64,000 bases of DNA. Origin: Candidatus Saccharimonadota bacterium. Lineage in GTDB: Bacteria > Patescibacteriota > Saccharimonadia > Saccharimonadales > Saccharimonadaceae. Numbering within the stretch: the stretch's first letter is position 1; each line of letters starts with the position of its first letter. A program made the position numbers and the translations under genes. The notes under the pieces were generated by a model. That model worked only from the letters and a program-made list of their open reading frames with translations, was not told the DNA's origin and ran no database searches. This document shows, piece after piece, positions 12,778-60,460 of the stretch. The stretch lies in contig JAFWBV010000005.1 of NCBI GenBank assembly GCA_017506895.1, forward strand, positions 67,983 through 131,982. Direction: 5' to 3'.

Positions 12778-13005
12778 TTAATTGCCATCAAAAATGTCAA
12801 TGGTTTTGATGCGGGATTTGTGGCCGCGGATGATGGAGATAGATGTCTTTGGCACGTCGAAATGTTTAGATAGGATTTTGATTAAAGCATCGTTAGCCGT
12901 GCCGTCTACGGGTTTGGCATGAAGATAAACGGTGAGTTCGTGGTCACCAGTGGTGACGATTTTTTCTTGAGAACTGCCGGGTTTTACGGTGACGGTGTAT
13001 CTCAT
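12778..13005 (-). CDS. DUF167 (YggU/UPF0235) family protein
   Basis: VTVKPGS, AKPVDGTANDALIKILSKHF, GHKSRIK. Confidence 0.9.
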   Translation of the reverse strand: MRYTVTVKPGSSQEKIVTTGDHELTVYLHAKPVDGTANDALIKILSKHFDVPKTSISIIRGHKSRIKTIDIFDGN

Positions 13006-13047
13006 ACAGTATATTATATAATAATTCTGCGTGATATAATAATAGAT

Positions 13048-15120
13048 ATGGCTAAATTTAAATTAGTATCAAAGTTTCAGCCGACCGGCGATCAGCCGTC
13101 AGCAATTCGTACGCTTGTAGACGGGCTTAATTCTGGTGTTCACGAACAAACGTTGCTGGGTGTAACTGGTTCAGGTAAAACTTTTACAATGGCAAACATT
13201 ATTGAACAGACCCAAAGACCGACTTTGATTCTGGCGCACAATAAGACTTTGGCAGCGCAGCTTTATTCCGAGTTTCGGGAATTTTTCCCGGAAAACGAAG
13301 TGCACTATTTTGTATCATATTTTGATTATTATCAACCGGAAGCATATATTGCATCGACCGATACATATATTGAAAAAGACTCAGCAATTAACGATGAGAT
13401 TGATAGATTAAGGCATGGTGCGACGGAAGCCTTGCTGACGCGACGTGACGTAATTGTAGTGGCGTCGGTATCGTGTATTTATGGTATCGGTTCACCAGCA
13501 AATTATACCGAAATGTCACTGCCGATGTGGCGAGTAAACGGTGAGTGGAAGGTGGCGCACGAAGGTTCTTTCTCGAGAGCTCTCAATGGCGCTAGCCCAA
13601 GCTTTACTCTATCGAAAGAATCCTTCGATGCACCACTTTCGCAGCTCGATTTCATTCGCCGATTGGTAGCGATGCAGTATCATCGAAATGATCTCGCATT
13701 CGAGCGAGGAAATTTCCGCGTGATGGGTGACACGATTGATTTATTCCCAGCAAACGGCGAATTTGCTTATCGATTCGAGTTTGGTTTTGATACACTAGAA
13801 GATGTCAAAATCGTGGAGCCATTGACAATGGCGGTGCGGGAAAAACCTGATTATGTGCATATTTTCCCAAATACACATTATGCGACGCCAATGGACCAAC
13901 TAGAAAAGGCTCTAGTGACGATTCGTGCTGAATATGAAGACAGAATGAAGTACTTTGAAAAACACCAAAAATATCTGGAAGCGCAAAGATTGTCACAGCG
14001 CACTAAGTATGATTTGGAGATGCTCAAAGAAACTGGTTTCGTAAAGGGAATTGAAAATTATTCTAGGCATCTAGATGGACGAAAACCCGGAGAGCCACCT
14101 TCGACACTGCTCGATTTCTTCCCGAAAGATTTTTTGCTCATTGTAGATGAATCCCATATGACTTTACCGCAAGTGCGCGGAATGTATAACGGTGACCACG
14201 CACGTAAAGTAACTTTGGTTGATTATGGTTTTCGTTTGCCGTCTGCGCTCGACAATCGCCCTTTGACTTACGGCGAATTTCAAAAACATATTAACCAAGC
14301 TATCTATGTATCTGCGACACCGGGAGAATACGAACTAGAGGTTTCACCTGCTCCGGCCGAACAAGTGATTCGCCCTACTGGGCTACTTGATCCTGAAATT
14401 GAAGTCCGAAGTTCAGATGGACAAATTGATGATTTAATGGAAGAGATAGACAAAAGAATCGCTAAGGGCCAAAGGACGCTGATTACGACTTTGACAAAAC
14501 GGATGGCCGAAGATTTGACTGACCATCTGAAAGAACGCGGCGTAAAGACAGCTTATATTCATTCGGATATTGATACTTTGGAGCGGGGAGATATTTTGCG
14601 AGATTTACGAGAAGGCGTTTATGATGTTTTGGTGGGGATTAACTTACTACGCGAGGGATTAGATTTACCAGAAGTATCGCTTGTAGCGATTTTAGATGCC
14701 GACAAGGAAGGATTCTTGCGTTCTGAATCGGCCTTAATTCAAACGATCGGGCGAGCGGCGCGTCACGAAGAAGGCAAAGTAATCATGTACGCCAATTTCA
14801 TTACAGAAAGCATGGAGAAAGCGATTTCAGAGACGAATCGCCGACGTGAGATTCAAAAAGAATATAATGAAAAACATCATATTACGCCGCATTCCGTCCA
14901 GAAAGAAATATCGATGGGACTGCGTGCTATCATACCAGAGAAGGAGAAGGAGAATAAACTCGATGTCCGTAAAATACCAAAAGATGAATTGCCGGCTTTA
15001 ATCAAACAACTATCTTCCGAGATGCAACTAGCTGCGGCAAACCTAGAATTTGAGCGTGCTGCCGCACTACGTGATGAAATTGAAAGAATTAAAGAATTCA
15101 TGGAAGGAAAGAAAAAATAA
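13048..15120 (+). CDS. uvrB: Excinuclease ABC subunit B, carrying an in-frame palindromic insertion
   Basis: PTGDQP, GVTGSGKT, YFDYYQPEAY, DESH, C-terminal UVR domain; ATG at 13048 follows TGATATAAT. Confidence 0.98.
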   Translation: MAKFKLVSKFQPTGDQPSAIRTLVDGLNSGVHEQTLLGVTGSGKTFTMANIIEQTQRPTLILAHNKTLAAQLYSEFREFFPENEVHYFVSYFDYYQPEAYIASTDTYIEKDSAINDEIDRLRHGATEALLTRRDVIVVASVSCIYGIGSPANYTEMSLPMWRVNGEWKVAHEGSFSRALNGASPSFTLSKESFDAPLSQLDFIRRLVAMQYHRNDLAFERGNFRVMGDTIDLFPANGEFAYRFEFGFDTLEDVKIVEPLTMAVREKPDYVHIFPNTHYATPMDQLEKALVTIRAEYEDRMKYFEKHQKYLEAQRLSQRTKYDLEMLKETGFVKGIENYSRHLDGRKPGEPPSTLLDFFPKDFLLIVDESHMTLPQVRGMYNGDHARKVTLVDYGFRLPSALDNRPLTYGEFQKHINQAIYVSATPGEYELEVSPAPAEQVIRPTGLLDPEIEVRSSDGQIDDLMEEIDKRIAKGQRTLITTLTKRMAEDLTDHLKERGVKTAYIHSDIDTLERGDILRDLREGVYDVLVGINLLREGLDLPEVSLVAILDADKEGFLRSESALIQTIGRAARHEEGKVIMYANFITESMEKAISETNRRREIQKEYNEKHHITPHSVQKEISMGLRAIIPEKEKENKLDVRKIPKDELPALIKQLSSEMQLAAANLEFERAAALRDEIERIKEFMEGKKK
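13548..13640 (+). repeat. 93-bp palindromic element inserted in frame in uvrB
   Basis: Nested stems GAAGGTGG/CCACTTTC and GAAGGTTCTTTC/GAAAGAATCCTTC; 38-nt core shared with the gatB element. Confidence 0.85.
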
Positions 15121-18146: not shown

Positions 18147-20858
18147 CTAGTGATTTTGATTAGTATTGTCATCCACTGCTGGTTTTGGCGTTAAAGTGAT
18201 ATCAGCCGTAGCGATATAACCAGCCGCATCAGAAACCATTAATTTAACTGCCGATTCAGTGCCAGTGAGGGTGTAACCGTTAATAGTGCCATCCCCGGCA
18301 ATTGAAATGTTATTGTAATCTTTGGTTTCACCTTTAGCAGTCACCTGAAGTGTATATCCGGCTAAATCATAAGTACCTTTACTAATGGTGGCGACTAGTT
18401 TTTTGCCGCTAACTGAAAGAGCAACCCTTGGTGGTTGATAATTACATGGATCGTTCTCATCTTTGTTGTATGGTTCTGGAACATTGTATACATCATCTCC
18501 AGTCATCGGATCAGTAACTTTAGTGACTTCGACTGCGATTTTATAGTTTTCCGGAGTACATGTGGTGGCCAGTAAATGGTTGTAACGGTTAAAAGTTAGA
18601 GTTTCTTTGGCAATACCTGAGTTTTTGGAAGCATTAAACCAACTCGGCCAAATATCGGTTTTGCCATTAACGGTGAGAGTTTGCATGCCGGCAGGACGAG
18701 CTGGTTGGTCGCCTGAGTGCCATTTGCCATCTGGTTCATAGACTTCGTGGTGGACTCTTTCCATGAAATTGCCCACAACGTATCTAACTGGGTCGCCAGA
18801 ACCAACCGCGAACCCAGAACCATCATGGTTGCCGTTCCAGACAAAGGTAGATAATGCAGTAGAATAGCTTTCAATCAAAGAATCTTTGACCTCGGTAGAA
18901 CGAGCGGTGGTAGTAGTACCAGTCTTGGTGGCCGTCCAAACGCCTGGGATATTAAAACCAATGGTACTATTGGCCCAGCGAGCAGAACGATCGCTCAAGA
19001 TATCGGAAATCATATAGGCTACCTGTTCATCTACGACGCGCGTAGCTTCGGAATCGGTCCAGGATTCAATTACTTCGCCAGATGAATTCTTGATTTCAAG
19101 AACGTAGGCTAAATCTTTGTATGCGCCGCCGCGAGCCAAAGATGCATATGCGTTAGCGTGCTCAACCATTTTAACGCCACAACCAGAACCAATGGCGATA
19201 GAGAGACCGTAGCCCTCGCGACCATCACAATATGTTTTATCACCTAAGGCATGGGCGACTTCTAGGGAATTGTCAATTCCGTTAATATAGAGCGCCTTAA
19301 CGGCCGCAATATTTAGCGAGTGACCGAGAGAGAAGCGAATTGTGACATTACCATAGAATGTATTGGTCGCATTAGTAAGAGCACAGCTCCCGGAATAACC
19401 AGCACAGTAGATTCTATTAATGTTTTCATCTTTTAATACAGAACCTGGGCCATAGTTGATACCATCACGTTGCATAAATAATGGAGCATAATCGAGAATT
19501 GGCTTAATAGATGAACCAGGCTCAATAATTGAATCAGTCGTGACGTTAAGTTCACCGTAGGTAGGATTAAAGAAATCGGCGGAACCTACCATAGCGATAA
19601 CCTGAGACGTTTCTACATCTACGGAGACCATGGCTAGATTGTCGGTGCGGTTGCGATATAGTTGCGCAACGCCAACAGCAATTGAGTCTTCTGCAATTTT
19701 TTGTGCACGTAAGTCTAGAGTGGTTTTGATGGTCCAACCACCGGCGCGCATTGTCGAAATACCGTATTTGTCTTCGAGCTGTTTTTTAACTTCGAGAACG
19801 AAATGTGGCGCCAACATGTCTGCATATTGATTAGCTTCTGGTTTTATGGTATCGAGAATTGCAACTTCTTTAGCAGCCTCGGCTTCTTCTCTAGTAATAT
19901 AACCCTTGATAACCATATCATCGAGCACCTTATGCTGACGTTCAATGAGCATTTCATTACCGTATGGATTATAAGGATTTAAAACGGCTGGGTTGTTTGG
20001 AATAGCAGCAAGCAGAGCAGCTTCTGGCAATGTTAGCTCTTTGGCAGATTTGCCAAAGTAAGTTTGGGAGGCAGACTCAACACCATTACGGCGCCCACCA
20101 TAAGGGGACTGATTAAGATACATGGTTAGAATCTCTTCCTTTGAATACATCTTTTCGAGCTCAATCGCGAGAATTAGCTCTTTGATTTTACGCTGAAGAC
20201 CACCACGGTTGGCACTGGCTGCTTCATCTGAGAAATACACTTGCTTAATTAACTGCTGAGTAAGAGTAGAACCACCTTGGACATCTTGACCAGTAACTGT
20301 ATACAATATGGCGCGTCCGAGTGCAATAAAATCTACGCCATGATGACCATAAAAATTCTTATCCTCGATAGCGACTGTGGCTTGATACATATATTCAGAA
20401 ATATCATCGCCGCTTACAACTAAACGATAATCTTCATTGCCGGTATCTTTCCAAAGCAATTCGCCGTTGCGATCAAGATATGTGTTGACGGTTTCTGAAA
20501 TAGACATTTCATCGAGACGAATTTCTTCAAGATCTTTTTTGTAATAGAGAAATAGCCCGCCAATAAAGATAATTCCTATCAAAATACAAGCGGCAAAAAA
20601 TTTTAGAATAGCTTTTTGACCGCGCCAAGAGAACCACCATTTAAAAACTCGTTTGGGATGAAGCCTGGCAAAGAACCGCTTGACCGGCTCCTTGGGGAGC
20701 TTGGCGAGTTCTTCGGCACGACGCCTTGCATTGGCTTCTTTTTTGGCTCGATGCTTATAGCTCAAGCTTGAATAAAGATTCATTTTTTTCGCAGTTTTGG
20801 ATGATTTAGCCTTTTTGGATTTCTTCGGCAAAATCACCTCCGATTTCTTTTTAGTCAT
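18147..20858 (-). CDS. Class A penicillin-binding protein (transglycosylase-transpeptidase)
   Basis: EDKNFYGHHG, GGSTLTQQLIK, RKIKE, EPGSSIKP (SxxK), SLN, KTGT. Confidence 0.95.
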   Translation of the reverse strand: MTKKKSEVILPKKSKKAKSSKTAKKMNLYSSLSYKHRAKKEANARRRAEELAKLPKEPVKRFFARLHPKRVFKWWFSWRGQKAILKFFAACILIGIIFIGGLFLYYKKDLEEIRLDEMSISETVNTYLDRNGELLWKDTGNEDYRLVVSGDDISEYMYQATVAIEDKNFYGHHGVDFIALGRAILYTVTGQDVQGGSTLTQQLIKQVYFSDEAASANRGGLQRKIKELILAIELEKMYSKEEILTMYLNQSPYGGRRNGVESASQTYFGKSAKELTLPEAALLAAIPNNPAVLNPYNPYGNEMLIERQHKVLDDMVIKGYITREEAEAAKEVAILDTIKPEANQYADMLAPHFVLEVKKQLEDKYGISTMRAGGWTIKTTLDLRAQKIAEDSIAVGVAQLYRNRTDNLAMVSVDVETSQVIAMVGSADFFNPTYGELNVTTDSIIEPGSSIKPILDYAPLFMQRDGINYGPGSVLKDENINRIYCAGYSGSCALTNATNTFYGNVTIRFSLGHSLNIAAVKALYINGIDNSLEVAHALGDKTYCDGREGYGLSIAIGSGCGVKMVEHANAYASLARGGAYKDLAYVLEIKNSSGEVIESWTDSEATRVVDEQVAYMISDILSDRSARWANSTIGFNIPGVWTATKTGTTTTARSTEVKDSLIESYSTALSTFVWNGNHDGSGFAVGSGDPVRYVVGNFMERVHHEVYEPDGKWHSGDQPARPAGMQTLTVNGKTDIWPSWFNASKNSGIAKETLTFNRYNHLLATTCTPENYKIAVEVTKVTDPMTGDDVYNVPEPYNKDENDPCNYQPPRVALSVSGKKLVATISKGTYDLAGYTLQVTAKGETKDYNNISIAGDGTINGYTLTGTESAVKLMVSDAAGYIATADITLTPKPAVDDNTNQNH

Positions 20859-20920: not shown

Positions 20921-22561
20921 ATGCGAAAGTTTAAGTTCCGGTCGGTTGTGGCGCTTGCAAATATTCGTTTGTCGGTAAAATCGGCAGCGATTGTGCTAGC
21001 TTCTTCAACTTTAATTTCAGCGCTACTTGGTTTGTTCCGAGATCGGCTACTTAATTCTTACTATTTAGGCACTTATCCGACGGGGATTGACGCTTACACG
21101 GCGGCTTTCACTATTCCAGATTTTATGTTTTTTATTCTGACGTCAGGAGCCCTTGCCGTATCTTTTATTCCGGTGTTTAACCAAAGACTTGCAACTGGCA
21201 ATAAAAAATCCGCCTGGGAAATGTCATCAAGCCTGATTAATTTATTGGCGCTTTTAACTTTCACGGCCAGTATACTCATAATGATATTTGCCGACCCATT
21301 GATTCGCTACGTCGTGTCACCAGGTCTAGATGAATCCGGCATGGTACTTGCTATTAATATGACAAGAGTAATAGCAATTAATCCGTTTCTTTTTTCAATT
21401 GCAACAGTTTTGACATCAATGCAACAAGCGGTAGGGCGGTTTATCTTTTATGCTTTTGCGCCCGCCATATATAATATAGGAATTATTATAGGTATTACTT
21501 GTTTCACTAATGGCATAAATATATTTGGTATTCAAATATTTGAAGGCGGCATCATGGGAGTAGCGCTTGGCGTTATTTTGGGTGCTATCATGCAGCTGAT
21601 TGTGTCGCTCATCGGACTATTTGGGCTAGGATTTGATTATGATTTTAAAATTTACTGGCGAAACCAAGGATTTAGGACGATTCTTAAACTATTGCCGCCA
21701 CGTTCTTTGGACCAGGGAATTGATTATGTAAATGCATTAGTTTCAACAAACTTATCGTCTCGTATGGGTGCGGGCGCCGTTAGATCTTTTGACCAGGCAA
21801 CTACGCTGCATACGGTGCCGGTGAGTTTGGTTGGCGTGGCGATTTCTACAGCTTTTTTCCCAAAACTAACCGAAGAGCTAGGCAATGGTGATCGGAAAAA
21901 ATTTAATGATACTTTCAGGCAGGCACTCAGAATGATTATCTGGATTGCTTTGCCAATATCAGTAATTGCGTTCTTTGGCCGTGGTTATGTTACTAGTTTT
22001 ATTTCTAATATTGGTAATAATGATAGTAACGGCACAATTTCGTCGATTCTAGGAACCTTATGCGTGGCGATTTTTGCAAAATCGGTTTTTCATATTGCAT
22101 CACGTGGTTTTTATGCTTACCAAGATACTAAGACACCGTTTATCGTTTCAATTATTGCAATTGGTTCGACGATTGGACTTATGATTATGTTTTCACTGCT
22201 TGGTTGGGGAGTAGATGGATTAGGTATTGCTCAATCTATTGGTGCAGTTTTTGAAATCTGTCTATTATTGTTTATTTTAAATCAGCGGTCACGCCATGAA
22301 TTACTGGATAAGGCATTCTTTAAAGCATTTATCCGAATGCTTGTAGCAACAGCGATCACGGGCTGCGTGGCGTTCTCGATGACAAAGTTTATTCCATTAA
22401 TGGCAACTGATAATTCATTAGTGATTACAATACCTAAATTCTTGTTTATTTCGTTCACGTCGCTTGTTGCCTATTTAATTGCGAGCTATTTCCTAGATTT
22501 AAAAGAGTCAAAGCCGGTGTTTGAATATATCAAAAAGAAATTGTTTAAGAACGTAAAATAG
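20921..22561 (+). CDS. murJ: Lipid II flippase MurJ
   Basis: LGLFRDRLL, AFTIPD, SFIPVF, many TMs. Confidence 0.92.
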   Translation: MRKFKFRSVVALANIRLSVKSAAIVLASSTLISALLGLFRDRLLNSYYLGTYPTGIDAYTAAFTIPDFMFFILTSGALAVSFIPVFNQRLATGNKKSAWEMSSSLINLLALLTFTASILIMIFADPLIRYVVSPGLDESGMVLAINMTRVIAINPFLFSIATVLTSMQQAVGRFIFYAFAPAIYNIGIIIGITCFTNGINIFGIQIFEGGIMGVALGVILGAIMQLIVSLIGLFGLGFDYDFKIYWRNQGFRTILKLLPPRSLDQGIDYVNALVSTNLSSRMGAGAVRSFDQATTLHTVPVSLVGVAISTAFFPKLTEELGNGDRKKFNDTFRQALRMIIWIALPISVIAFFGRGYVTSFISNIGNNDSNGTISSILGTLCVAIFAKSVFHIASRGFYAYQDTKTPFIVSIIAIGSTIGLMIMFSLLGWGVDGLGIAQSIGAVFEICLLLFILNQRSRHELLDKAFFKAFIRMLVATAITGCVAFSMTKFIPLMATDNSLVITIPKFLFISFTSLVAYLIASYFLDLKESKPVFEYIKKKLFKNVK

Positions 22562-22865: not shown

Positions 22866-24244
22866 AAATCGCAAACAAAAAAGTTACAGCTGAGAGACTA
22901 GTAAAGGATGCACTGGCAAAAGCCAAGCATTTTGCTGAATATAACATTTTTACTTATCTAAACGAAGAAGAGGCTCTGAAAAAAGCTCGCAAAATCGATG
23001 CTCGAATCGCACGAGGAGAAGACGTAGGAAAACTAGCCGGTGTACCATATGCACTAAAGGATAACTTCTTGTCGCCAGAAGGCGAGACTACGGCTTCAGC
23101 GCATATTTTGCAAGGTTTCGTCTCACCGGTCACCGCAACATCAGTAGCAAAACTAGAGGCGGAAGGGGCAATCATGATTGGACGGACAAACATGGATGCA
23201 TTTGCTCATGGGTCATCGACTGAAAACTCATATTTTGGTCCTACACTTAATGCACACGATAAAGAACGTGTCGCCGGAGGTTCGTCTGGCGGTTCAGCAG
23301 TAGCTGTTGCGCTCGATATTGTAGAATTTGCGACCGGTACAGATACTGGTGGCTCAATTAGACAACCGGCATCTTTTAACGGAGTTTATGGATTTAAACC
23401 GACCTATGGCTGCATTTCGCGCTATGGTGTAGTCGCGATGGCTTCGTCGACGGATTGTATTGGCTTCTTTGCGAAAACACCAGAAGATATGGATTTACTA
23501 ATGTCGATTGCTTCGGGCCAAGATTCGAAAGATATGACAACGTTACCAGATTATTATAACGACGAAGTGAGCACGGAATTGAATAGTTCCCGTGCTCGCG
23601 TTGGCATAATTAAAGATTTTGACAATGAATCGGTTGACCCAGAAATTCGCGAGGCATTGAAAACTAAGTGCGACGCCCTAAAATCAAAGGGCCATGAAAT
23701 CGTTGAGCTTGAAATGCCAGCATTAAAATATGCGCTTGCAGCATATTATATTATCGTTCCAGCCGAAGTCGCCTCAAACTTATCACGCTATGATGGCGTA
23801 CGCTATGGATTTCGTTCAGAAAAGTCGGATGATTTAGATGCTTTGTATTTTAATACTCGCTCGGAAGGATTTATGCCTGAGAACAAACGCCGAATTATGA
23901 TTGGAAATTTTGTGTTGTCATCTGGTTTTTACGATGCGTATTTTCTAAAAGCCGCAAAGGCTAGAACACTAATTGTAAAAGAATATGAAAAAGCCTTTAA
24001 AAAATGTGATTATTTATTGACGCCGGTGTCCCCAAACCCAGCCTTTAAGCTCGGTGAAAAAGTAAATGATCCGGTAGCGATGTATCTAGAGGATGTGATG
24101 AGCGTTTCGCTTAATTTGGCTGGAGTGCCTGGTTTAGCTATTCCAGCAGGAAAAACTAAGAAGGGCCTACCAATTGGCTTGCAACTCGTAGGGCCTAGAA
24201 GAAGCGATAAGAATTTAATTATATTTAGTAAGGAGCTAATCTAA
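22862..24244 (+). CDS. gatA: Asp/Glu-tRNA amidotransferase subunit A
   Basis: Amidase signature GGSSGGSA, GTDTGGSIRQPA, SRYDGVRYG. Confidence 0.97.
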   Translation: MKIANKKVTAERLVKDALAKAKHFAEYNIFTYLNEEEALKKARKIDARIARGEDVGKLAGVPYALKDNFLSPEGETTASAHILQGFVSPVTATSVAKLEAEGAIMIGRTNMDAFAHGSSTENSYFGPTLNAHDKERVAGGSSGGSAVAVALDIVEFATGTDTGGSIRQPASFNGVYGFKPTYGCISRYGVVAMASSTDCIGFFAKTPEDMDLLMSIASGQDSKDMTTLPDYYNDEVSTELNSSRARVGIIKDFDNESVDPEIREALKTKCDALKSKGHEIVELEMPALKYALAAYYIIVPAEVASNLSRYDGVRYGFRSEKSDDLDALYFNTRSEGFMPENKRRIMIGNFVLSSGFYDAYFLKAAKARTLIVKEYEKAFKKCDYLLTPVSPNPAFKLGEKVNDPVAMYLEDVMSVSLNLAGVPGLAIPAGKTKKGLPIGLQLVGPRRSDKNLIIFSKELI

Positions 24245-24663: not shown

Positions 24664-24731
24664 ATCAAATAAGAATCAAAAATAAGGCAATGCGACTTTA
24701 TCTAACAATAAAGAATACGAGGTTGAAATAA
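24660..24731 (+). CDS. Candidate 23-aa micro-ORF coupling the HEPN-like gene to gatB
   Basis: AGGAG SD; ATG overlaps upstream TGA (ATGA); its TAA overlaps the gatB ATG (TAATG). Confidence 0.45.
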   Translation: MNQIRIKNKAMRLYLTIKNTRLK

Positions 24732-26209
24732 TGAAATATATACCGACAATTGGAATCGAATGCCACGTACAACTTTGTACAAAAACTAAATTGTTTTCCG
24801 AAGTGGATAACGATGCACGGGGGAAAGAACCAAATTCTTGCGTTTCACCAGTGGATTACGCTTTGCCCGGAATGTTGCCAAGATTAAATGGCGAAGCAAT
24901 TAGATTGGCAATCCTAGCCGGGCGAGCCATGAATTGCGAAATTAACACTTGGTCACGTTTTGATCGAAAACACTATTTTTATCCTGATTCACCTAAAGGA
25001 TATCAAATTACTCAATTTTATGAACCGATTATTGGTGCAGGATATGTTGAGCTACCGTCTGGAACCAAAATTCGAATTGAACACGCACATCTCGAGGGCG
25101 ATGCTGGAAAATTAACACATTTTAATAGTTACTCCTTAGTAGATTTAAACCGTGTAGATACTCCTTTAATTGAAATTGTTTCGATGCCCGACATTCATTC
25201 GGCGAGTGACGCCCATGATTATGCGAAGGAACTTTGGAGATTGATGTGCTTTGCTGGCGTGACATACGGTGATTTATACAACGGGAATATGCGATTTGAT
25301 GTAAATATATCATTGGCGCCAGAAGGAGCAGAGAAATTAGGCACACGCGCAGAAGTTAAAAATCTTAATTCATTTAGAAGCGTAGAAAGAGCAGTAGAAT
25401 ACGAAATAAAACGCCAGAGTAAAATCTTAGATGCTGGACAAAAGGTAGTGCAAGAAACTAGGGGCTGGAATGACGCTAAGGGTGAAACAACGGGGCAGCG
25501 ATCAAAGGAAGAAGCAAAAGATTATCGTTATATGCCGGAGCCAGATTTGCCACCGATTAATCTTTCGGCTGAATTTATCGAAAATGAGTCGGCTAAATTA
25601 CCTTTGATGCCATCGGATTACCGCGAAATATTTAATGGCATTATTAAATCAGACATCTTGGAAGTGTTGCTAGATTATCCGAAGCTTATGGAGAAATTAA
25701 GAGAACTCGGAAAGGTCCCCGGTCGAGAGCGCTCAAGGCCGCTAGGCCAAGCTTCACTCTCTCCCGTGAACCTTCCAAGTTCTCAAATTGCAACAATCTC
25801 TAATTTATTTACATCAGTGTTACTGGCGGAGGAAAAGTCGGCGGAATATTTGAACGATTTGCCATCGACAGCCGATTTGGCAGAACTAGCTGAAATGAAT
25901 GAGAAAAAAGAATTGTCATCAACAGCAACCAAGGAAGTATTTTTGAAATTATTTGATCCGCAGATGAAGAATCATGGAGCAAAACAAATCGCAAAGGAGC
26001 TGGGACTTATTCAAGAAAATGACCTTGGTGCTCTCGAAAAAATAGTAGACGTGGTACTATCTAAGCCGGAAACGCAAAAAGCACAGGAAGATTTCCGAGC
26101 AGGTTCAGAAAAAGTACTCGGATTCTTGGTGGGGCAGGTAATGAAAGAATCGCGTGGTAAAGCTAACCCGGGCGCAGTACAAGAGATTCTCCGCAAAAAA
26201 CTACAATGA
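24731..26209 (+). CDS. gatB: Asp/Glu-tRNA amidotransferase subunit B, carrying an in-frame palindromic insertion
   Basis: IGIECHVQL, RKHYFYPDSPKGYQITQ, DYRYMPEPDLPP, GQVMKESRGKANP. Confidence 0.97.
   Translation: MKYIPTIGIECHVQLCTKTKLFSEVDNDARGKEPNSCVSPVDYALPGMLPRLNGEAIRLAILAGRAMNCEINTWSRFDRKHYFYPDSPKGYQITQFYEPIIGAGYVELPSGTKIRIEHAHLEGDAGKLTHFNSYSLVDLNRVDTPLIEIVSMPDIHSASDAHDYAKELWRLMCFAGVTYGDLYNGNMRFDVNISLAPEGAEKLGTRAEVKNLNSFRSVERAVEYEIKRQSKILDAGQKVVQETRGWNDAKGETTGQRSKEEAKDYRYMPEPDLPPINLSAEFIENESAKLPLMPSDYREIFNGIIKSDILEVLLDYPKLMEKLRELGKVPGRERSRPLGQASLSPVNLPSSQIATISNLFTSVLLAEEKSAEYLNDLPSTADLAELAEMNEKKELSSTATKEVFLKLFDPQMKNHGAKQIAKELGLIQENDLGALEKIVDVVLSKPETQKAQEDFRAGSEKVLGFLVGQVMKESRGKANPGAVQEILRKKLQ
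25701..25784 (+). repeat. 84-bp palindromic element inserted in frame in gatB
   Basis: Stems GAGAACT/AGTTCTC and GGAAAGGT/ACCTTCC; core 25723-25760 matches uvrB 13573-13610 at 33/38. Confidence 0.85.
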
Positions 26210-39839: not shown

Positions 39840-40847
39840 ATGGATGAGCAGCCAAAAGCTGATTATTCCCAAGATACTTGGAAAAAAATAGTAGAATTAT
39901 ATCCAGAAGCGAATTTTTTGCAATCTCCGGCTTATGGCCAAATGAATGAACTGCTCGGTGATAAAGCTCTATTTTTGGATTTCGATGGAAAAGGTTACGC
40001 TCTCGCAATTGTCAGAAATGCTAAACGTGGGAGATATTTAGAGATTCCATGCGGACCATTGATTGACTGGAACGATAAAAAGAAAGTAAAAGTTGTGTTT
40101 GAGACAATAAAAACCGTCGCAAAAAAAGAAAAGTGCGTATTTGTGCGAATAAGACCACAACTAAACAAAACTGATAAGAATATGAAACTTTTGGCTGAGT
40201 TGGGTTTGGTCGAATCGCCAATGCATCTTGCAGCCGAGCACACAGTAATGATTGATTTAACAAAAACCGAAGATGAATTACTTGCAGATATGAGACGCCA
40301 GACTCGGTACGAAGTCAGGCAAGCGGAAAAACAGGGTATAGACGTCACTCGTGATAATTCAGAAGAAATCTTTGAAGAGTTTCACCAGGTGCAGGCAGAG
40401 ACCGCAAAAAGACAGGGTTTTGTGCCACCGTCTTTAAAGGTTTTGATGGCCGAAAGAGCAGCTTTTTCTAACAATGCGACAATATATGTAGCCAAAACCG
40501 CCGATGGAGAAGTGATTGCTTATGGGCTCATTATAAAAGCCGGACGTGAAGGAGATTATTACGAAGCCGCTTCTACGCTCCTAAATCGCAAACTACCTGG
40601 AGCATATGCTTTGTTGTGGCAAGCTATGAAAGATTTAAAGAAAGAAGGATTCGAGAGATTTAATCTATGGGGAATTGCACCGGCTGGACAGCCGAATCAT
40701 CGCTATGCTGGGGTGACTACTTTTAAGACTGGGTTTGGGGGCGAAGTAGTAGAATATGTGCCGGCACACGATATAGTAATTTCACGGATGGGCTATTTAA
40801 AGGATCTCGTCGTCGAAAAAGCACGCAAGAAAAGGAGACGTTTATGA
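39840..40847 (+). CDS. FemABX-family peptidoglycan bridge aminoacyl ligase
   Basis: NFLQS, LEIPCGP, MRRQTRYEVRQAEKQG, FNLWG, FKTGFGG. Confidence 0.92.
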   Translation: MDEQPKADYSQDTWKKIVELYPEANFLQSPAYGQMNELLGDKALFLDFDGKGYALAIVRNAKRGRYLEIPCGPLIDWNDKKKVKVVFETIKTVAKKEKCVFVRIRPQLNKTDKNMKLLAELGLVESPMHLAAEHTVMIDLTKTEDELLADMRRQTRYEVRQAEKQGIDVTRDNSEEIFEEFHQVQAETAKRQGFVPPSLKVLMAERAAFSNNATIYVAKTADGEVIAYGLIIKAGREGDYYEAASTLLNRKLPGAYALLWQAMKDLKKEGFERFNLWGIAPAGQPNHRYAGVTTFKTGFGGEVVEYVPAHDIVISRMGYLKDLVVEKARKKRRRL

Positions 40848-41980
40848 TAGTAAAAACTAAAACAGCGCATTCTCGACACGCTTCGTCACGCCCGTCGTTA
40901 CGAGGTTCCTTACTCAATCCGCTCCCGTCGTCGCGGACGGTTTCGAATTGCACTATTTCTGGTTTTTCTATCATAGATGCGACTTCTCGTGAGATTTGGG
41001 ACGAATTTATTAAATCTCATCCGGAATCTAACTTTTTGCAGTCGTGGGATTTTTATGAGTTTCATGCTTCGCGCGGTAAAAAGGTTGTACGAAGGCTGGC
41101 CTACAATGATGATAAGATTGTGGGGGCATATGCAGGAGTAGTTGAAACGGCAAAACGAGGACGCTATATGGCAATTGCAGGTGGGCCGATACTAGACTGG
41201 GCAGATAAAAAGTTAATTAGGGCTTTATTTGAAGATATTAAGGCTGAAGGGAAAAAGGCCGGATGCGTATTTGTAAGAGTGAGACCACAGTTAGAATTGT
41301 CTGATAAATCTTTGAAGCTTATGAACGATTTGGGTTTGAAACGTGCACCGATGTATTTGTCGGTGGAATTTGCAGGAATTTTGAATCTAGAAAAAACCGA
41401 AGAAGAGATACTGGCTGGGGCTTCACAGGGTTTTCGCAGAAAACTACGTAAAGCGATGAAAAATGGAATTGAAATATTGGCGGAGACTAGTGATGAAGCG
41501 ATTAAAGAGTTTTGCCGACTAGAAAAACTACACGCTGAGAGACAAAAGTATGTGGCGTTTTCTGGAGAGTTTTTGAAAAAACAATTTGAAGCTTTCCGCA
41601 GTGGCGAAGAGGTTATTATCTATACAGCCCGCAAAGATGGCGAGACGCTGGCGCAGAATTTTATGATTTTTTATGGTCCAGAAGCGAGCTATCATTACGG
41701 AGTATCATCAGAGCTGGGAACGAAGTATTCGGCGGCACCGCTTCTCCATATGGAAGCGATGAAAGAAGCACGAAAACGTGGTTGTATTCGTTATAATTTA
41801 TGGGGGATTGTTGAACCAGATGAGACTTCACACCGGTTTTATGGAGTTTCAGAGTTTAAGCGATCATTCGGTTGCGAAGAATTGCGCTATACGCCGGCCC
41901 ACGATATGGTTTTGAAGCCTTTGGCCTACCAAAAAACAAAGATAGTGGAAACTGCTCGCAAGAAAATCCGACATGTATAG
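40844..41980 (+). CDS. Second FemABX-family ligase with GC-rich N-terminal extension
   Basis: NFLQSW, IAGGP, FRRKLRKA, YNLWG, FKRSFG; ATGA overlap with the first. Confidence 0.92.
   Translation: MIVKTKTAHSRHASSRPSLRGSLLNPLPSSRTVSNCTISGFSIIDATSREIWDEFIKSHPESNFLQSWDFYEFHASRGKKVVRRLAYNDDKIVGAYAGVVETAKRGRYMAIAGGPILDWADKKLIRALFEDIKAEGKKAGCVFVRVRPQLELSDKSLKLMNDLGLKRAPMYLSVEFAGILNLEKTEEEILAGASQGFRRKLRKAMKNGIEILAETSDEAIKEFCRLEKLHAERQKYVAFSGEFLKKQFEAFRSGEEVIIYTARKDGETLAQNFMIFYGPEASYHYGVSSELGTKYSAAPLLHMEAMKEARKRGCIRYNLWGIVEPDETSHRFYGVSEFKRSFGCEELRYTPAHDMVLKPLAYQKTKIVETARKKIRHV
40864..40954 (+). repeat. GC-rich structured segment in the 5' coding region of the second Fem ligase
   Basis: About 60% GC by manual count; hairpins TCGTCACG/CGTTACGA and CCGTC/GACGG; imperfect terminal pairing. 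Confidence 0.5.
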
Positions 41981-44803: not shown

Positions 44804-47800
44804 AACGCGGTTGAAACCGAGTGATTATGTCCATCTTCATAACCATACCCATTATTCGTTATTGGATGGTTTGACTAAAATACCAGAGTTAGTTAAATTC
44901 GTCAAAGACGAGGGAATGGAAGCTGTTGCCGTAACTGACCACGGCACAATGTCTGGGCTAGTTGAGCTATACAAAGAGTGCAATGATGCTGGAATCAAGC
45001 CAATTTTGGGACTTGAAGCTTATGTTGCGGCTCGCAAAATGACAGACCGTGATCCAGCACATGATAAACAGAGATTCCATATAACTCTTTTAGCAATGAA
45101 CAATAAGGGTTTTGAAAATCTCTGCCGAATTATGAGCAACGCCGAAATAAACGGCAAGTATTATAAACCACGTACCGACCATGATGAACTAGAAAAATAT
45201 AATGAAGGAATTATATGTTTGTCTGGTTGTATGGGTTCAGAAATCTCTGAAGCAATTAGAGCCGGTGACGATGAACGGGCTTTAAAACTAATTGATTGGT
45301 ACAGAAATGTATTTAAGGATCGTTTTTATCTAGAAATGCAGGACCATGGTCACCCGAAGTCATCAACTCATTCACTAGAGCAAAAAAAGGTTAATGATTG
45401 GTTGATGGCACATGCAGATGAGTTGAAATTACCGCTTGTGGTAACGTGCGACGCACACTACCTTAGGCATGAAGATCAGGATGCGCACGAAGTTTTACTT
45501 TGTATCGGCACGGCGGCTAATCTATCTGATACGAATAGAATGACATTAAAGGACTATGATTTACATGTTATCTCTCCTAAAGAAATAATCGAGCACTGGG
45601 AAGATACTTGTCCGGAAGCTGTACGAAACACTAGGCGAATAGCAGATCGATGTAACGTTGATTTGCAACTGGGCAGAATACTGATTCCAAAATTTCCAGT
45701 ACCAGACGGTGAAGATGAGAAAACTTTCTTAGATAAATTGGTGTTTCAAGGATTAGTCTATCGCTATGGTGGGAAGAAGCTTGAAGATACTGTGGATATG
45801 AGCGTAGAAGTATGCCGGAAAATACTCGAAAAGGTAGATAAAGACCGCGACGAATTACACAAAATACTGCCCCGTATTGATTACGAATTGTCTGTAGTAG
45901 ACAAAATGGGGTATAATGGTTACTTTCTAATCGTCCAAGATTTTATTAACTGGGGTAAGTCCCAGCGTATCGTCTATGGACCTGGGCGTGGTTCGGCGGC
46001 AGGTTCAATTTTGGCTTATGCGCTGCGTATTACCGAGCTAGACCCCTTAAAATACGATTTACTCTTTGAAAGATTCTTGAATCCGGATAGAATTAGCATG
46101 CCAGATATCGATACGGATATACAAGACACGAGACGTGATGAGGTAATTCAATACTGTTCCGATAAATATGGTTTTAATCGCGTGTCAAACATTGCGACTT
46201 TTGGCAAAATGATGGCCAAAAACGCCGTACGAGACGTGGCTAGAGTACTCGAGGTGCCTTATGCGGAGGCGGATAGGCTAGCCAAAATGGTGCCAGATCC
46301 GATACAAGGTCACCACGTTCATCTAGCTGACGCGATTCGCGATGTGCCTGATTTAAAACAAGAGTACGAAACAAACCCGACGTCAAAGGAAGTGATTGAT
46401 TTTGCATCTAGGTTAGAAGGAACCATCAGAAACCATGGTGTACACGCATGTGGCGTAATTATTGCGCCCGACGATCTAGTAAAGTTTTTACCGCTTGAAG
46501 TTTCGGCGAAAGGCCCGATTGCAGCACAGTTCCCAATGGGGCAAGTCGAAGAGCTGGGACTACTCAAAATGGACTTTTTGGGGCTTTCTAACCTTTCTGT
46601 TATTAATAATGCGTTAAGAATGGTAAGAAAAGTTTATCATGAAGATGTAGACATGTATTCATTACCATTGGACGATCCACAAACGTATGCTCTTCTGCAA
46701 CGAGCGGAAACTACCGGCGTATTTCAGCTTGAATCAGCTGGGATGAAGAGATATTTGCGCGATTTGAAAGCTTCTTCATTTGAAGATATTATCGCTATGG
46801 TGGCATTATATCGTCCGGGGCCAATGCAATTTATTGATTCATTTATTCGAAGAAAACACGGGCAAGAGCCGATTACATATTTGCATCCAGGACTAGAGAA
46901 CTCACTGAAGAGTACTTACGGAATTATGATTTACCAAGAGCAGTTCATGCAGATTTCGAAGGAATGGTGCGGTTTTACGGGCGGTCAAGCTGACACGCTA
47001 CGTAAAGCCGTAGGTAAGAAAAAAATTGATTTAATGAAAAAGGTGAAACCGGAGTTTATTAAGGGTGCGGTAGAAATTGGTGGTGCTACAGAAGAAATTG
47101 CGGAGACCTTTTGGTCACAGCTGCTCGAATTTGCTAATTATTGTTTCAATAAATCACATGCCGCATGCTATGCCTTAATTGCTTATTGGACGGCGTATCT
47201 TAAGGCGCACTATCCAGACGCCTTTATGGCGGCGCTAATGACCGCTGATATGCGTTGGACTGATAGATTGGCAATAGAAATGGCTGAATGTAAGAAAATG
47301 GGTCTTAAAGTATTGGGTCCCGATATCAATCAATCTTATGGAGATTTTGGTATTGTGGGCGGAGAAAACACAATTAGGTTTGGCCTATCCGGAATTAAAG
47401 GTATGGGGAAAGCATTGGTAGAAGAAATCGTGATTCCAGAACGAGATAAAAATGGTCCCTTTAAGTCAATTTGTGATTTTGCAAAACGCGTCGATTCGAC
47501 TAAGTTCAACAAAAAATCCTGGGAAGGAGCTATCAAAACTGGCGCCTTTGACAGATTTGGCTACTCGCGTTCGGATTTACTATTCAATCTCGAAGCCGTG
47601 CAAGCATATGGTGCTAAAATCCAAAAGGATGTCGGTTCAGGACAAACTGATTTATTCGGAATGATGGGTGAAGCAGGAGCAGTGCCGGAAGTGGAGATTA
47701 AGCCCGCACCGGTACAGCATCCAGAAAAAGAACAGCTATTATGGGAACGAGATTTGATGGGTCTTTATTTGTCGGCGCATCCGTTAGATAAATATGATAC

Positions 47801-54931: not shown

Positions 54932-54980
54932 AGTTTTATTTTATCACGTGACATGATATAATCGAAACATTATCAATTTA

Positions 54981-55073
54981 ATATCAAGAAGGGGCAAAGG
55001 GAACGGCCCGACGACCCCCTGCCAACCTAGTTTAATAACCAAGGTGGTAAATCCGACCAGAAAGGAAAGATAT
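54981..55073 (+). ncRNA. SAM-I/IV-type riboswitch
   Basis: ATATCAAGAA...GGGAACGGCCCGACGA...GCCAACC...GGTGGTAAATCC...GATAT upstream of metK; P1 ATATC/GATAT. Confidence 0.85.
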
Positions 55074-56037
55074 GTTCTATCGAACTGCGGAGAGCGTTTC
55101 TCCAAAACACCCAGACAAACTATGTGACCAAATTAGCGATGCGATTTTGGACGCCTATTTAAAGGCAGATAAAGATGCGCGCGTGGCGGCAGAAACTTGT
55201 GGCGGACACGGCGTAGTATTTGTGACTGGCGAAATCACTTCAAAAGCATCCGACATTGATATTCCGACCATTGTCAAACGCATTGCTGGCGAAGACATGG
55301 AAATACACACCAAAATTGTAAAGCAATCGCCTGAAATTGCAGCCGGTGTGGATACTGGTGGAGCGGGCGATCAGGGAATTATGATTGGCTATGCCTGTGA
55401 TGAGACGCCCGAAATGCTACCACGCGAAGTAATATTGTCGCGACGATTAAACCAGTTTATTTTTGATAAATATCCTTATGATGGCAAAACTCAAGTGACG
55501 ATTGCGCCGGATGGTTCAATTGATTCCATGGTGGCAAGTTTTCAAAATGTGCCAAAAGACGTGCTAGAAGAATTGGTGCATGAATTTATCGCCAATGAAA
55601 AGCTAGAAGGCAAATTAGAACTACATATTAACCCAGCCGGAGATTGGAACCAGGGAGGGTTTGACGCTGATACTGGATTAACTGGACGCAAATTAATCGT
55701 GGACAACTATGGGCCTCGAGTTGCGATTGGTGGCGGTTGTTATTCTGGTAAAGACCCAAGTAAAGTGGACCGTTCGGCCGCTTATATGGCTCGTAAAATT
55801 GCTGTAGATTATTTACGTAAACGTAAGGCGCATGAAGTTTTGGTACGTTTGGCTTACGCGATTGGGCATGATCAGCCGCTCGAAAAAACTGTGATAATCG
55901 ATGGCGAACCAGAAGAAATTGATGGCTACGATTTGTCACCACGTGGTATTATTAAATTCTTAAATCTAAAGCGCCCGATTTATGAAGCTACGGCTAAATG
56001 GGGGCATTATGGAGAAGGTTTTGACTGGGACAAATAA
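55072..56037 (+). CDS. metK: S-adenosylmethionine synthetase
   Basis: ESVSPKHPDKLCDQISD, GAGDQG, DTGLTGRKLIVD, GKDPSKVDRS. Confidence 0.97.
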   Translation: MFYRTAESVSPKHPDKLCDQISDAILDAYLKADKDARVAAETCGGHGVVFVTGEITSKASDIDIPTIVKRIAGEDMEIHTKIVKQSPEIAAGVDTGGAGDQGIMIGYACDETPEMLPREVILSRRLNQFIFDKYPYDGKTQVTIAPDGSIDSMVASFQNVPKDVLEELVHEFIANEKLEGKLELHINPAGDWNQGGFDADTGLTGRKLIVDNYGPRVAIGGGCYSGKDPSKVDRSAAYMARKIAVDYLRKRKAHEVLVRLAYAIGHDQPLEKTVIIDGEPEEIDGYDLSPRGIIKFLNLKRPIYEATAKWGHYGEGFDWDK

Positions 56038-60373: not shown

Positions 60374-60460
60374 TGGTGGGCGAGAAGGGACTTGAACCCT
60401 TACTGTATTGCTACAACCAGATTTTGAGTCTAGCGCGTCTACCAGTTCCGCCACTCGCCC
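60374..60460 (-). tRNA. tRNA-Leu(CAA)
   Basis: GGGCGAG/CTCGCCC + ACCA; anticodon stem CTAGA/TCTGG, loop CTCAAAA; long variable arm. Confidence 0.95.

Follow-up and report, generated by a model that had tools for sequence, protein, structure and literature searches.

GC-rich palindromic mini-elements, described as GC clusters and double-hairpin elements, have invaded the AT-rich and compact genomes of fungal mitochondria, coding regions included. IS200/IS605 elements transpose through single-stranded DNA in a process coupled to the template of the lagging strand, from which a strand lock would result. Selfish palindromes inside essential protein genes are best known from Rickettsia, where the families of Rickettsia palindromic elements (RPEs) run from RPE-1 to RPE-10 (Ogata et al. 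2000 Science 290:347, cited via PMC10969869). Long, near-perfect inverted repeats also stand in functional coding genes of nematomorph mitochondria, and template switching or arm-to-arm conversion has been proposed for them (PMC6649704). Here, a hairpin of 84 nt inside gatB, an essential gene, is described from a genus of the candidate phyla radiation. The window, that is, the whole stretch of DNA that was analyzed, comprises 64,000 nt of a Candidatus Nanosyncoccus metagenome-assembled genome (MAG) and corresponds to C5:67983-131982 of this source genome (G000; 715 kb in 12 contigs, 39% GC, 92% complete, about 90% coding). The gatB hairpin, at positions 25701..25784 of the + strand, is best explained, with a probability that we put at roughly 0.78, as a copy of a small, non-autonomous, selfish family of palindromic DNA elements of Candidatus Nanosyncoccus, RPE-like in its character and read through in frame by its host gene.

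The Hairpin in gatB

The host gene gatB (24731..26209, + strand) encodes a protein of 492 aa, assigned by Pfam and by alignment with 29 and with 80 orthologues. The element within it was delimited from its sequence, the z-score of its fold and its match to R1, the covariance model of the repeat family to which it belongs (family A). The 84 nt consist of the stems GAGAACT/AGTTCTC and GGAAAGGT/ACCTTCC around a GC-rich interior, with an outer stem (25701-25716 / 25770-25784, + strand) that encloses an inner stem and the tip. Folded as RNA, the + strand reaches -39.9 kcal/mol (z -5.75), a value equaled by 0 of 200 dinucleotide shuffles, and the - strand reaches -53.2 kcal/mol (z -6.7). GC content is 0.55 across the element compared with ~0.38 in the flanking sequence. 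The conserved tip, or core (25723..25760, + strand), is marked by the conserved columns of alignments A2 and A3 and contains a GGCC-GCTA-GGCC mini-hairpin flanked by CTCAA and AAGCTT. With a GGCC-N4-GGCC tip on a stem of at least 17 bp, the gatB copy has the features by which R1 defines family A. Its own match to R1 (25697-25787, 78.4 bits, E 7e-20) holds by construction, as this copy is part of the seed alignment, and the independent support comes from the more than 500 matches in other genomes.

An earlier note, made from the DNA of the window alone, had described this hairpin with the same two stems and had reported that its core is shared with the copy in uvrB at 33 of 38 positions. Both statements are confirmed. 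The sequence reads as claimed and folds strongly, and the identity between the gatB core and uvrB 13573-13610 was again 33/38 when recomputed; a degenerate pattern of the core matched twice in the window and never in 100 shuffles. The peptides encoded by the tip are GRERSRPLGQASLS in gatB and SRALNGASPSFTLS in uvrB, and they differ, as the note had argued, because the frames differ. Its description of a 28-codon element in frame holds for the length, but the element begins at codon position 2 and the net insertion amounts to 23 codons. In the product of the gatB frame, Pfam places GatB_N at residues 6-284 and GatB_Yqey at residues 355-491, with the hairpin between these two domains. The element adds 23 residues between the catalytic/helical part of GatB and its YqeY-like tail domain.

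Families A and B

Copies of the repeat were located by nhmmer, BLAST and R1. The source genome holds 25 copies in total, 7 of family A and 18 of a second family, B. Those of family A, located by nhmmer and the covariance model, lie in gatB, in uvrB, at C5:158 kb, at C7:4 kb, at C3:2 kb (two copies) and at C2:18 kb. The sister copy in uvrB (13547..13637, + strand; R1 69.5 bits, fold z -4.1) sits in a gene of 733 aa (12919..15120, + strand; Pfam UvrB_inter, Helicase_C, UvrB and UVR) and has the tip in common with the gatB copy, its stem and reading frame being different. Altogether 16 of the 25 copies are inside long open frames, with 15 identified housekeeping genes among the hosts. The host genes named by Pfam encode YchF, UvrD/PcrA, LigA, Dus, IleRS (two copies), QueA, TatD, a class-V aminotransferase, MnmA, Obg (two copies), TrmD, GyrA, UvrB and GatB. 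Copies of the two families occur in both gene orientations and between genes. Of 101 genomes of the genus, 71 contain family A according to R1, with 1-23 copies in each and more than 500 matches overall, whereas none of 120 others of the order gave a match (98 genera when this genus is counted).

The reading frames taken by these copies are several. Different genes and species read the family-A tip in one of three sense frames or in a single antisense frame, and six antisense-oriented copies of family B share a single frame (…SRPSPRG.RANSRAAALRN…); the frames observed are the frames that are open in the units examined. The copies are in frame and without a stop in all 16 intragenic cases of this genome, in 36 gatB alleles, in about 15 uvrB alleles and in about 23 of 31 copies elsewhere, a pattern that suggests translation of the insert as part of the protein. 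The alternative that the element stays untranslated, being cut from the mRNA or bypassed by the ribosome like the byp elements of Magnusiomyces mitochondria (cited in PMC6649704), would be in keeping with the stability of the hairpin and with its high GC content amid AT-rich coding sequence, and what speaks for translation is the statistics of frames and stops. Bypass would not, however, impose such constraints on frame and stop codons as are seen in the intragenic copies examined, and we consider this alternative highly improbable.

Some further copies and look-alikes can be recorded here. The intergenic family-A copies C5:158061-158151 and C7:4148-4236 lie between convergent ends of open reading frames (ORFs), where a bidirectional terminator would be expected. 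At C3:2160-2301 and C2:17958-18075, a second, incomplete tip with a related arm lies ~70-80 nt beyond a copy of family A, an arrangement of tandem or half copies. A FemAB gene in the window (40844-41980) has near its start a segment (40864-40954) described as GC-rich and structured, with CCCGTCGT motifs, the same motif as in family-B variants in the gatB and uvrB genes of relatives; the family-B profile gave no score on this segment, and the Pfam FemAB domain begins only at residue 48 of the product.

Variation at the GatB and UvrB Sites

GatB was aligned first with 29 relatives and then across 80 species-level genomes of the genus (81 with this genome). The closest loci belong to MAGs of Candidatus Nanosyncoccus or Candidatus Saccharibacteria, mostly from the ruminant gut. 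The orthologues differ in length exactly at the hairpin, as had been anticipated: GatB has 469 aa and no insert in 45 of the 81 species compared with 492 aa in this genome, and the insert-free proteins have a short linker (…EID-K-YVK..SNLF) at this place. The nearest relatives of this genome's GatB are all without the insert, as is GatB in 7 of 7 aligned genomes from other families of the order. When Thermotoga maritima GatB (3AL0_B) is aligned, the insert falls opposite a gap, its place being the linker that precedes the tail domain. Judged from the aligned sequences, the gatB hairpin is an insertion.

The same gatB site carries 18-168 extra nt in 36 of the 81 species, all in frame and free of stops. 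These inserts are nearly all GC-rich, with folds of -40 to -115 kcal/mol, and they belong to several families, including family A in three frames, family B in both orientations, and A+B and B+B composites. The family-A frames are that of this genome, that of the uvrB copy (in locus L062) and LGHTQGRSAKLTVLD in seven others, and a comparison of L066 with L063 shows a 30-nt piece nested in the family-A tip. Close relatives often disagree in what they carry. Well-supported sister pairs with differing gatB inserts are L101 (family B) and L118 (none), L100 and L121, and L131 and L096. The sisters L061 and L067 have family B in opposite orientations (inverted in L067) at ~3% protein divergence, and in the sisters L066 (family A) and L090 (another family) the outer arms are identical around different inserts. 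On the best GatB tree, which was built without the insert columns and has 32 of 78 branches open, presence or absence of the insert requires 21 changes, and at least 7 changes are forced by starred (well-supported) branches. No direct repeat or target-site duplication was seen between filled and empty sister alleles, whose flanks are too diverged or overwritten for a firm conclusion, and an exact 29-nt left-flank search of metagenome contigs, aimed at empty-site alleles within the species, gave no match. A comparable situation exists in UvrB, where residues about 207-242 are variable, forming a short loop in some species and containing family A, family B or other hairpins in others.

These comparisons also bear on the quality of the assembly. 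Since library artefacts can yield palindromes, a hairpin in a MAG could in principle be a fold-back chimera that arose in assembly or binning. The same tip is nevertheless found at the same sites and in frame across dozens of MAGs that different studies assembled independently, with lengths that keep the reading frame, and it occurs in an isolate-type Bifidobacterium record as well (see below), so that an artefact is hardly conceivable.

A Shared Tip on Private, Covarying Stems

Alignments of 13 and later of 48 family-A copies from many genomes, with 17 stem pairs modeled, show a common order of the tip, with CTCAA followed by the GGCC-N4-GGCC mini-hairpin and AAGCTT. The stem around it varies from site to site and remains paired. 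In the 48 copies, 92.4% of the stem cells pair compared with 62% after shuffling, the covariation score is 0.765 compared with 0.20 for shuffled and 0.09-0.16 for slid partners, and double-sided changes between copies are found in 16 of the 17 stem pairs; these values overstate the independence of the observations, given the relatedness of the copies and the fitting of the alignment to the model, although the effect is very large. The stem mismatches comprise 23 G.T and 36 A.C among 958 cells. This lack of a wobble preference fits a palindrome of double-stranded DNA, or one in which both strands matter equally, and not an RNA made from one strand.

Parts of the stems coincide with host codons. 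The gatB hairpin measures 84 nt compared with a net insertion of 69 nt, and ~15 nt of its stem are at positions equivalent to native codons. In this genome the right arm is new, and the left arm codes for R-E-L-G-K at the place of N-E-I-D-K in relatives that carry no insert; a native left arm and a new right arm are also seen when this genome is compared with L087. The opposite arrangement is present in L101, whose right arm corresponds to the native codons of its sister L118 and whose left flank has been rewritten to complement that arm. In uvrB of L036 and L037, the pairing is lengthened by a Leu-to-Pro change, and the stem extends to the conserved GW and SQ codons. The stems thus appear to be partly host sequence, as fold-back template switching would produce.

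The earlier note had placed conservation of the element at the level of the nucleic acid, and the occurrence of the same tip in several frames, on both strands and between genes bears this out. Covariation between copies, which it had proposed to look for by a joint fold, is present, with 16 of 17 pairs doubly changed, and similar in-frame inserts in other core genes, likewise proposed there for a survey, are represented among the 16 intragenic copies of this genome. From the differing outer stems of the gatB and uvrB copies it had suggested either old insertions or a modular element; private stems are general in the family, and the modular element is the better fit of the two, the old insertions the poorer one.

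A structured element in a messenger invites the explanation that it acts as RNA in cis, as an RNase III site, as a pause in translation that lets domains fold, or as a stability element. The strong covariation agrees with such a role, as do the position of the hairpin between two GatB domains and the intrinsically better-folding strand of family B, whose model strand has a fold 5-12 kcal/mol better than the other in 17 of 18 copies irrespective of gene direction. Copies are found, however, in either orientation with respect to genes as well as between genes that converge, G.T is not favored over A.C in family A, most orthologues are without the structure, and a search of Rfam gave no family that matches the gatB hairpin, only sub-threshold miRNA-like matches. 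In addition, the better fold is that of the antisense strand, and not of the mRNA strand, in 39 of 48 gatB and uvrB inserts, whereas control coding windows favor the sense strand. Family A has neither the fixed orientation relative to the transcript nor the G.U tolerance of a structured cis-regulatory RNA, and a role of this kind is very unlikely. Selection against mRNA structure was also considered and rejected as the cause of the fold asymmetry, which tracks the orientation of the element and not the gene, orientation in turn tracking the GC skew. The family-B tip resembles a three-way junction with two small GC hairpins (e.g. C11:41760-41862 and C5:26006-26099).

Orientation Relative to GC Skew

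On each contig of this genome, the copies of one family are all on one strand. The model strand of family A lies on the G-rich strand and that of family B on the C-rich strand in 21 of 24 copies (6/6 for family A and 15/18 for family B), the relative polarity of the two families having been read from the same data as this count. The three exceptions are all located where the local |skew| is <=0.02. Of 31 family-A copies in 29 other genomes, 29 have their model strand on the strand that is G-rich locally, and the rule holds in 7 of 9 copies from other genomes that are antisense to their host gene. The orientation of the element is locked to the chromosome strand and not to transcription, and the locked strand is presumably a replication strand.

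A lock of this kind would also be expected if the hairpins were DNA sites that serve the host, as has been proposed for repetitive extragenic palindromes (REPs) or bacterial interspersed mosaic elements; a nucleoid, gyrase-like, replication or recombination protein would then bind the hairpins, selection would keep them on one strand, and in coding DNA they would only be tolerated. High conservation of the tip over hundreds of copies, including those on Bifidobacterium-like contigs, and the active maintenance of stem pairing are compatible with this explanation. A site that is needed would not be expected to be so dispensable, however: copy numbers range from 0 to 23 per genome, 30 of 101 genomes of the genus and 120 of 120 others of the order have no copy of family A, and close sisters differ in presence, family and orientation at one and the same site. 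Function as a host site is for these reasons improbable, though less so than a cis-acting RNA.

Occurrence in Bifidobacterium and Search for an Enzyme

An exact search of metagenome contigs with the tip gave at least 120 matches. Most of the matches listed are on human-gut contigs of 56-62% GC, where the tip is carried by long, perfect, site-specific stems, and they represent at least 24 distinct loci. R1 gives 38-56 bits on the high-GC loci tested. One of these records, LT671998.1 (L227), encodes a LepA identical to that of ABXX02, which is Bifidobacterium pseudocatenulatum DSM 20438, and at 2176-2260 of L227 it has the ~35-nt tip on a private stem between ORFs. The skew count at the Bifidobacterium-like loci is 8 vs 11, the skew being weak there. 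To our knowledge, all known hosts of Saccharibacteria are Actinomycetota, the phylum of Bifidobacterium. A viral origin was examined and rejected, as the one exact tip match in IMG/VR is on a high-GC contig and has no hairpin, with ~1 chance match expected by our own estimate.

This 92%-complete genome gave no match to Y1_Tnp, the TnpB nuclease domain, IS110, rve, DDE_Tnp_1 or a mutator-type transposase. Y1 transposases are present in only 7 of the 101 genus genomes, and their loci are unlike the repeat cores. A transposase partner was accordingly rejected, with the six Pfam families not found here and the rare Y1 loci of the genus unrelated to the cores. Four of the loci, L204-L207 (in G023, G067, G094 and G053), contain full-length IS200/IS605-type Y1 genes with frames of 156-162 aa and mutually dissimilar DNA.

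A Proposed Route of Spread

The mobile part of family A is probably the shared tip of ~35-38 nt, with a 4-bp mini-hairpin between CTCAA and AAGCTT. This tip would sit on a long, nearly pure Watson-Crick stem that is private to each site and partly made or copied from the flanking host codons. Copies may land genome-wide and would survive inside genes only if their length is a multiple of three, if they are free of stops and if they fall into a tolerant surface linker, where they would be read through as an extra loop of 20-50 residues. Permissive sites such as the GatB linker and the UvrB loop would fill, empty and refill across species. The spread is most likely to take place via single-stranded DNA at the replication fork, a route suggested by the fixed relation of the orientation to the GC-skew strand instead of the gene, and the stem would be grown and kept perfect by fold-back (intra-strand) template switching.

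Several points weigh against this explanation. Movement has not been observed, no target-site duplication could be defined and no enzyme is known, although a transposase gene could be missing from a MAG that is 92% complete. Reuse of the gatB site could partly be due to recombination between species instead of new insertions, given that the GatB tree is poorly resolved. The strand lock could reflect selection on the tip-bearing strand and not the mechanism of insertion, and the strand asymmetry of family B could point to a strand-specific RNA or to a single-stranded form of the DNA. Translation of the insert, finally, is read from the frames and the absence of stops in the DNA.

A more far-reaching proposal is that the ~35-nt tip by itself moves and represents a new kind of element, independent of a transposase or using some unknown enzyme, spreading as single-stranded DNA coupled to replication, entering DNA at a hairpin or as one, building its stem by inverted copying of the flank and crossing between phyla. 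The crossing is suggested by the presence of one tip, on private stems, in both Bifidobacterium and Nanosyncoccus and its absence from the 120 other genomes of the order. We hold this proposal tentatively, and clearly below the selfish RPE-like family in likelihood. If it were true, the phylum-crossing tip would record that a gut epibiont and its host have exchanged DNA, and the shared tip may mark such gene flow.

For the selfish palindromic family itself, the extent of the family, the reuse of the gatB and uvrB sites, the strand lock and the presence in Bifidobacterium go beyond what the earlier note had claimed. Four features are added to what is known from Rickettsia, namely a shared tip with a private covarying stem, the refilling of loops in close relatives, the strand lock and the Bifidobacterium tip, and together they make the mechanism testable in a cultivable organism. 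In GatB, UvrB, LigA, GyrA and other proteins, the copies also provide a natural scan, by insertion, of the loops that are permissive. For annotation they are a warning that repeat DNA can account for extra segments of 20-50 residues in this phylum's proteins.

Other Features of the Window

A fold scan found other GC-rich hairpins in ORFs that are not assigned to family A or B. Moderately stable hairpins in long ORFs of the window, likewise unassigned and with -36 to -39 kcal/mol per 110-nt window of the scan, are located at 20651-20747, 21734-21840, 23273-23370, 45950-46041 and 46235-46332, and may be decayed elements, elements of other families or chance structures. The window also contains an S-adenosylmethionine (SAM) riboswitch at 54978-55076, upstream of the ORF 55072-56037, and two tRNA genes at 1206-1293 and 60377-60460.

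Comparison with Known Systems

Searches of the literature found no published description of such elements for Saccharibacteria, Nanosyncoccus or other bacteria of the candidate phyla radiation, and a limited search found none for Bifidobacterium. The closest described relatives in kind are the RPEs. According to the published account of these elements, they too are short palindromic repeats, of about 100-150 bp, in a small genome that depends on a host, no transposase being known for them, and many of their copies are in frame in unrelated housekeeping genes, apparently read through as loops, with others between genes. The same account describes RPEs as sharing sequence over their whole length and as encoding a conserved peptide in one frame, whereas here only the ~35-nt tip is shared, on private stems. 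Unlike RPEs, the present elements use several frames and both strands, their sites are refilled by different families, their orientation follows the GC skew and they belong to another phylum. Family A is not a member of the RPE families, being set apart by these descriptions in that it has neither the whole-length conservation nor the conserved peptide.

[quoted passage not shown] MITEs have conserved terminal inverted repeats, target-site duplications and related insertion sequences, whereas here the ends are the most variable part and no related insertion sequence was found. With variable ends and no partner insertion sequence, family A is not a classical MITE. REPs and REPINs with their RAYT transposases (REP-associated tyrosine transposases), as well as elements derived from IS200/IS605, are similar to family A in being based on hairpins, and the orientation bias relative to the replication strand is found here as well. 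These systems need a Y1 (HUH) transposase and REPs are extragenic, whereas this genome has 0 Y1 genes.

Outside bacteria, the GC-rich mini-elements of fungal mitochondria are, unlike family A, organellar, some of them are bypassed and not translated, and there is no sequence relation between them and family A. The nematomorph repeats resemble the hairpins described here in that their arms encode native positions of the protein and in their dynamic gain and loss. They are without a shared mobile tip and do not form a dispersed family, whereas here a conserved tip marks every copy.

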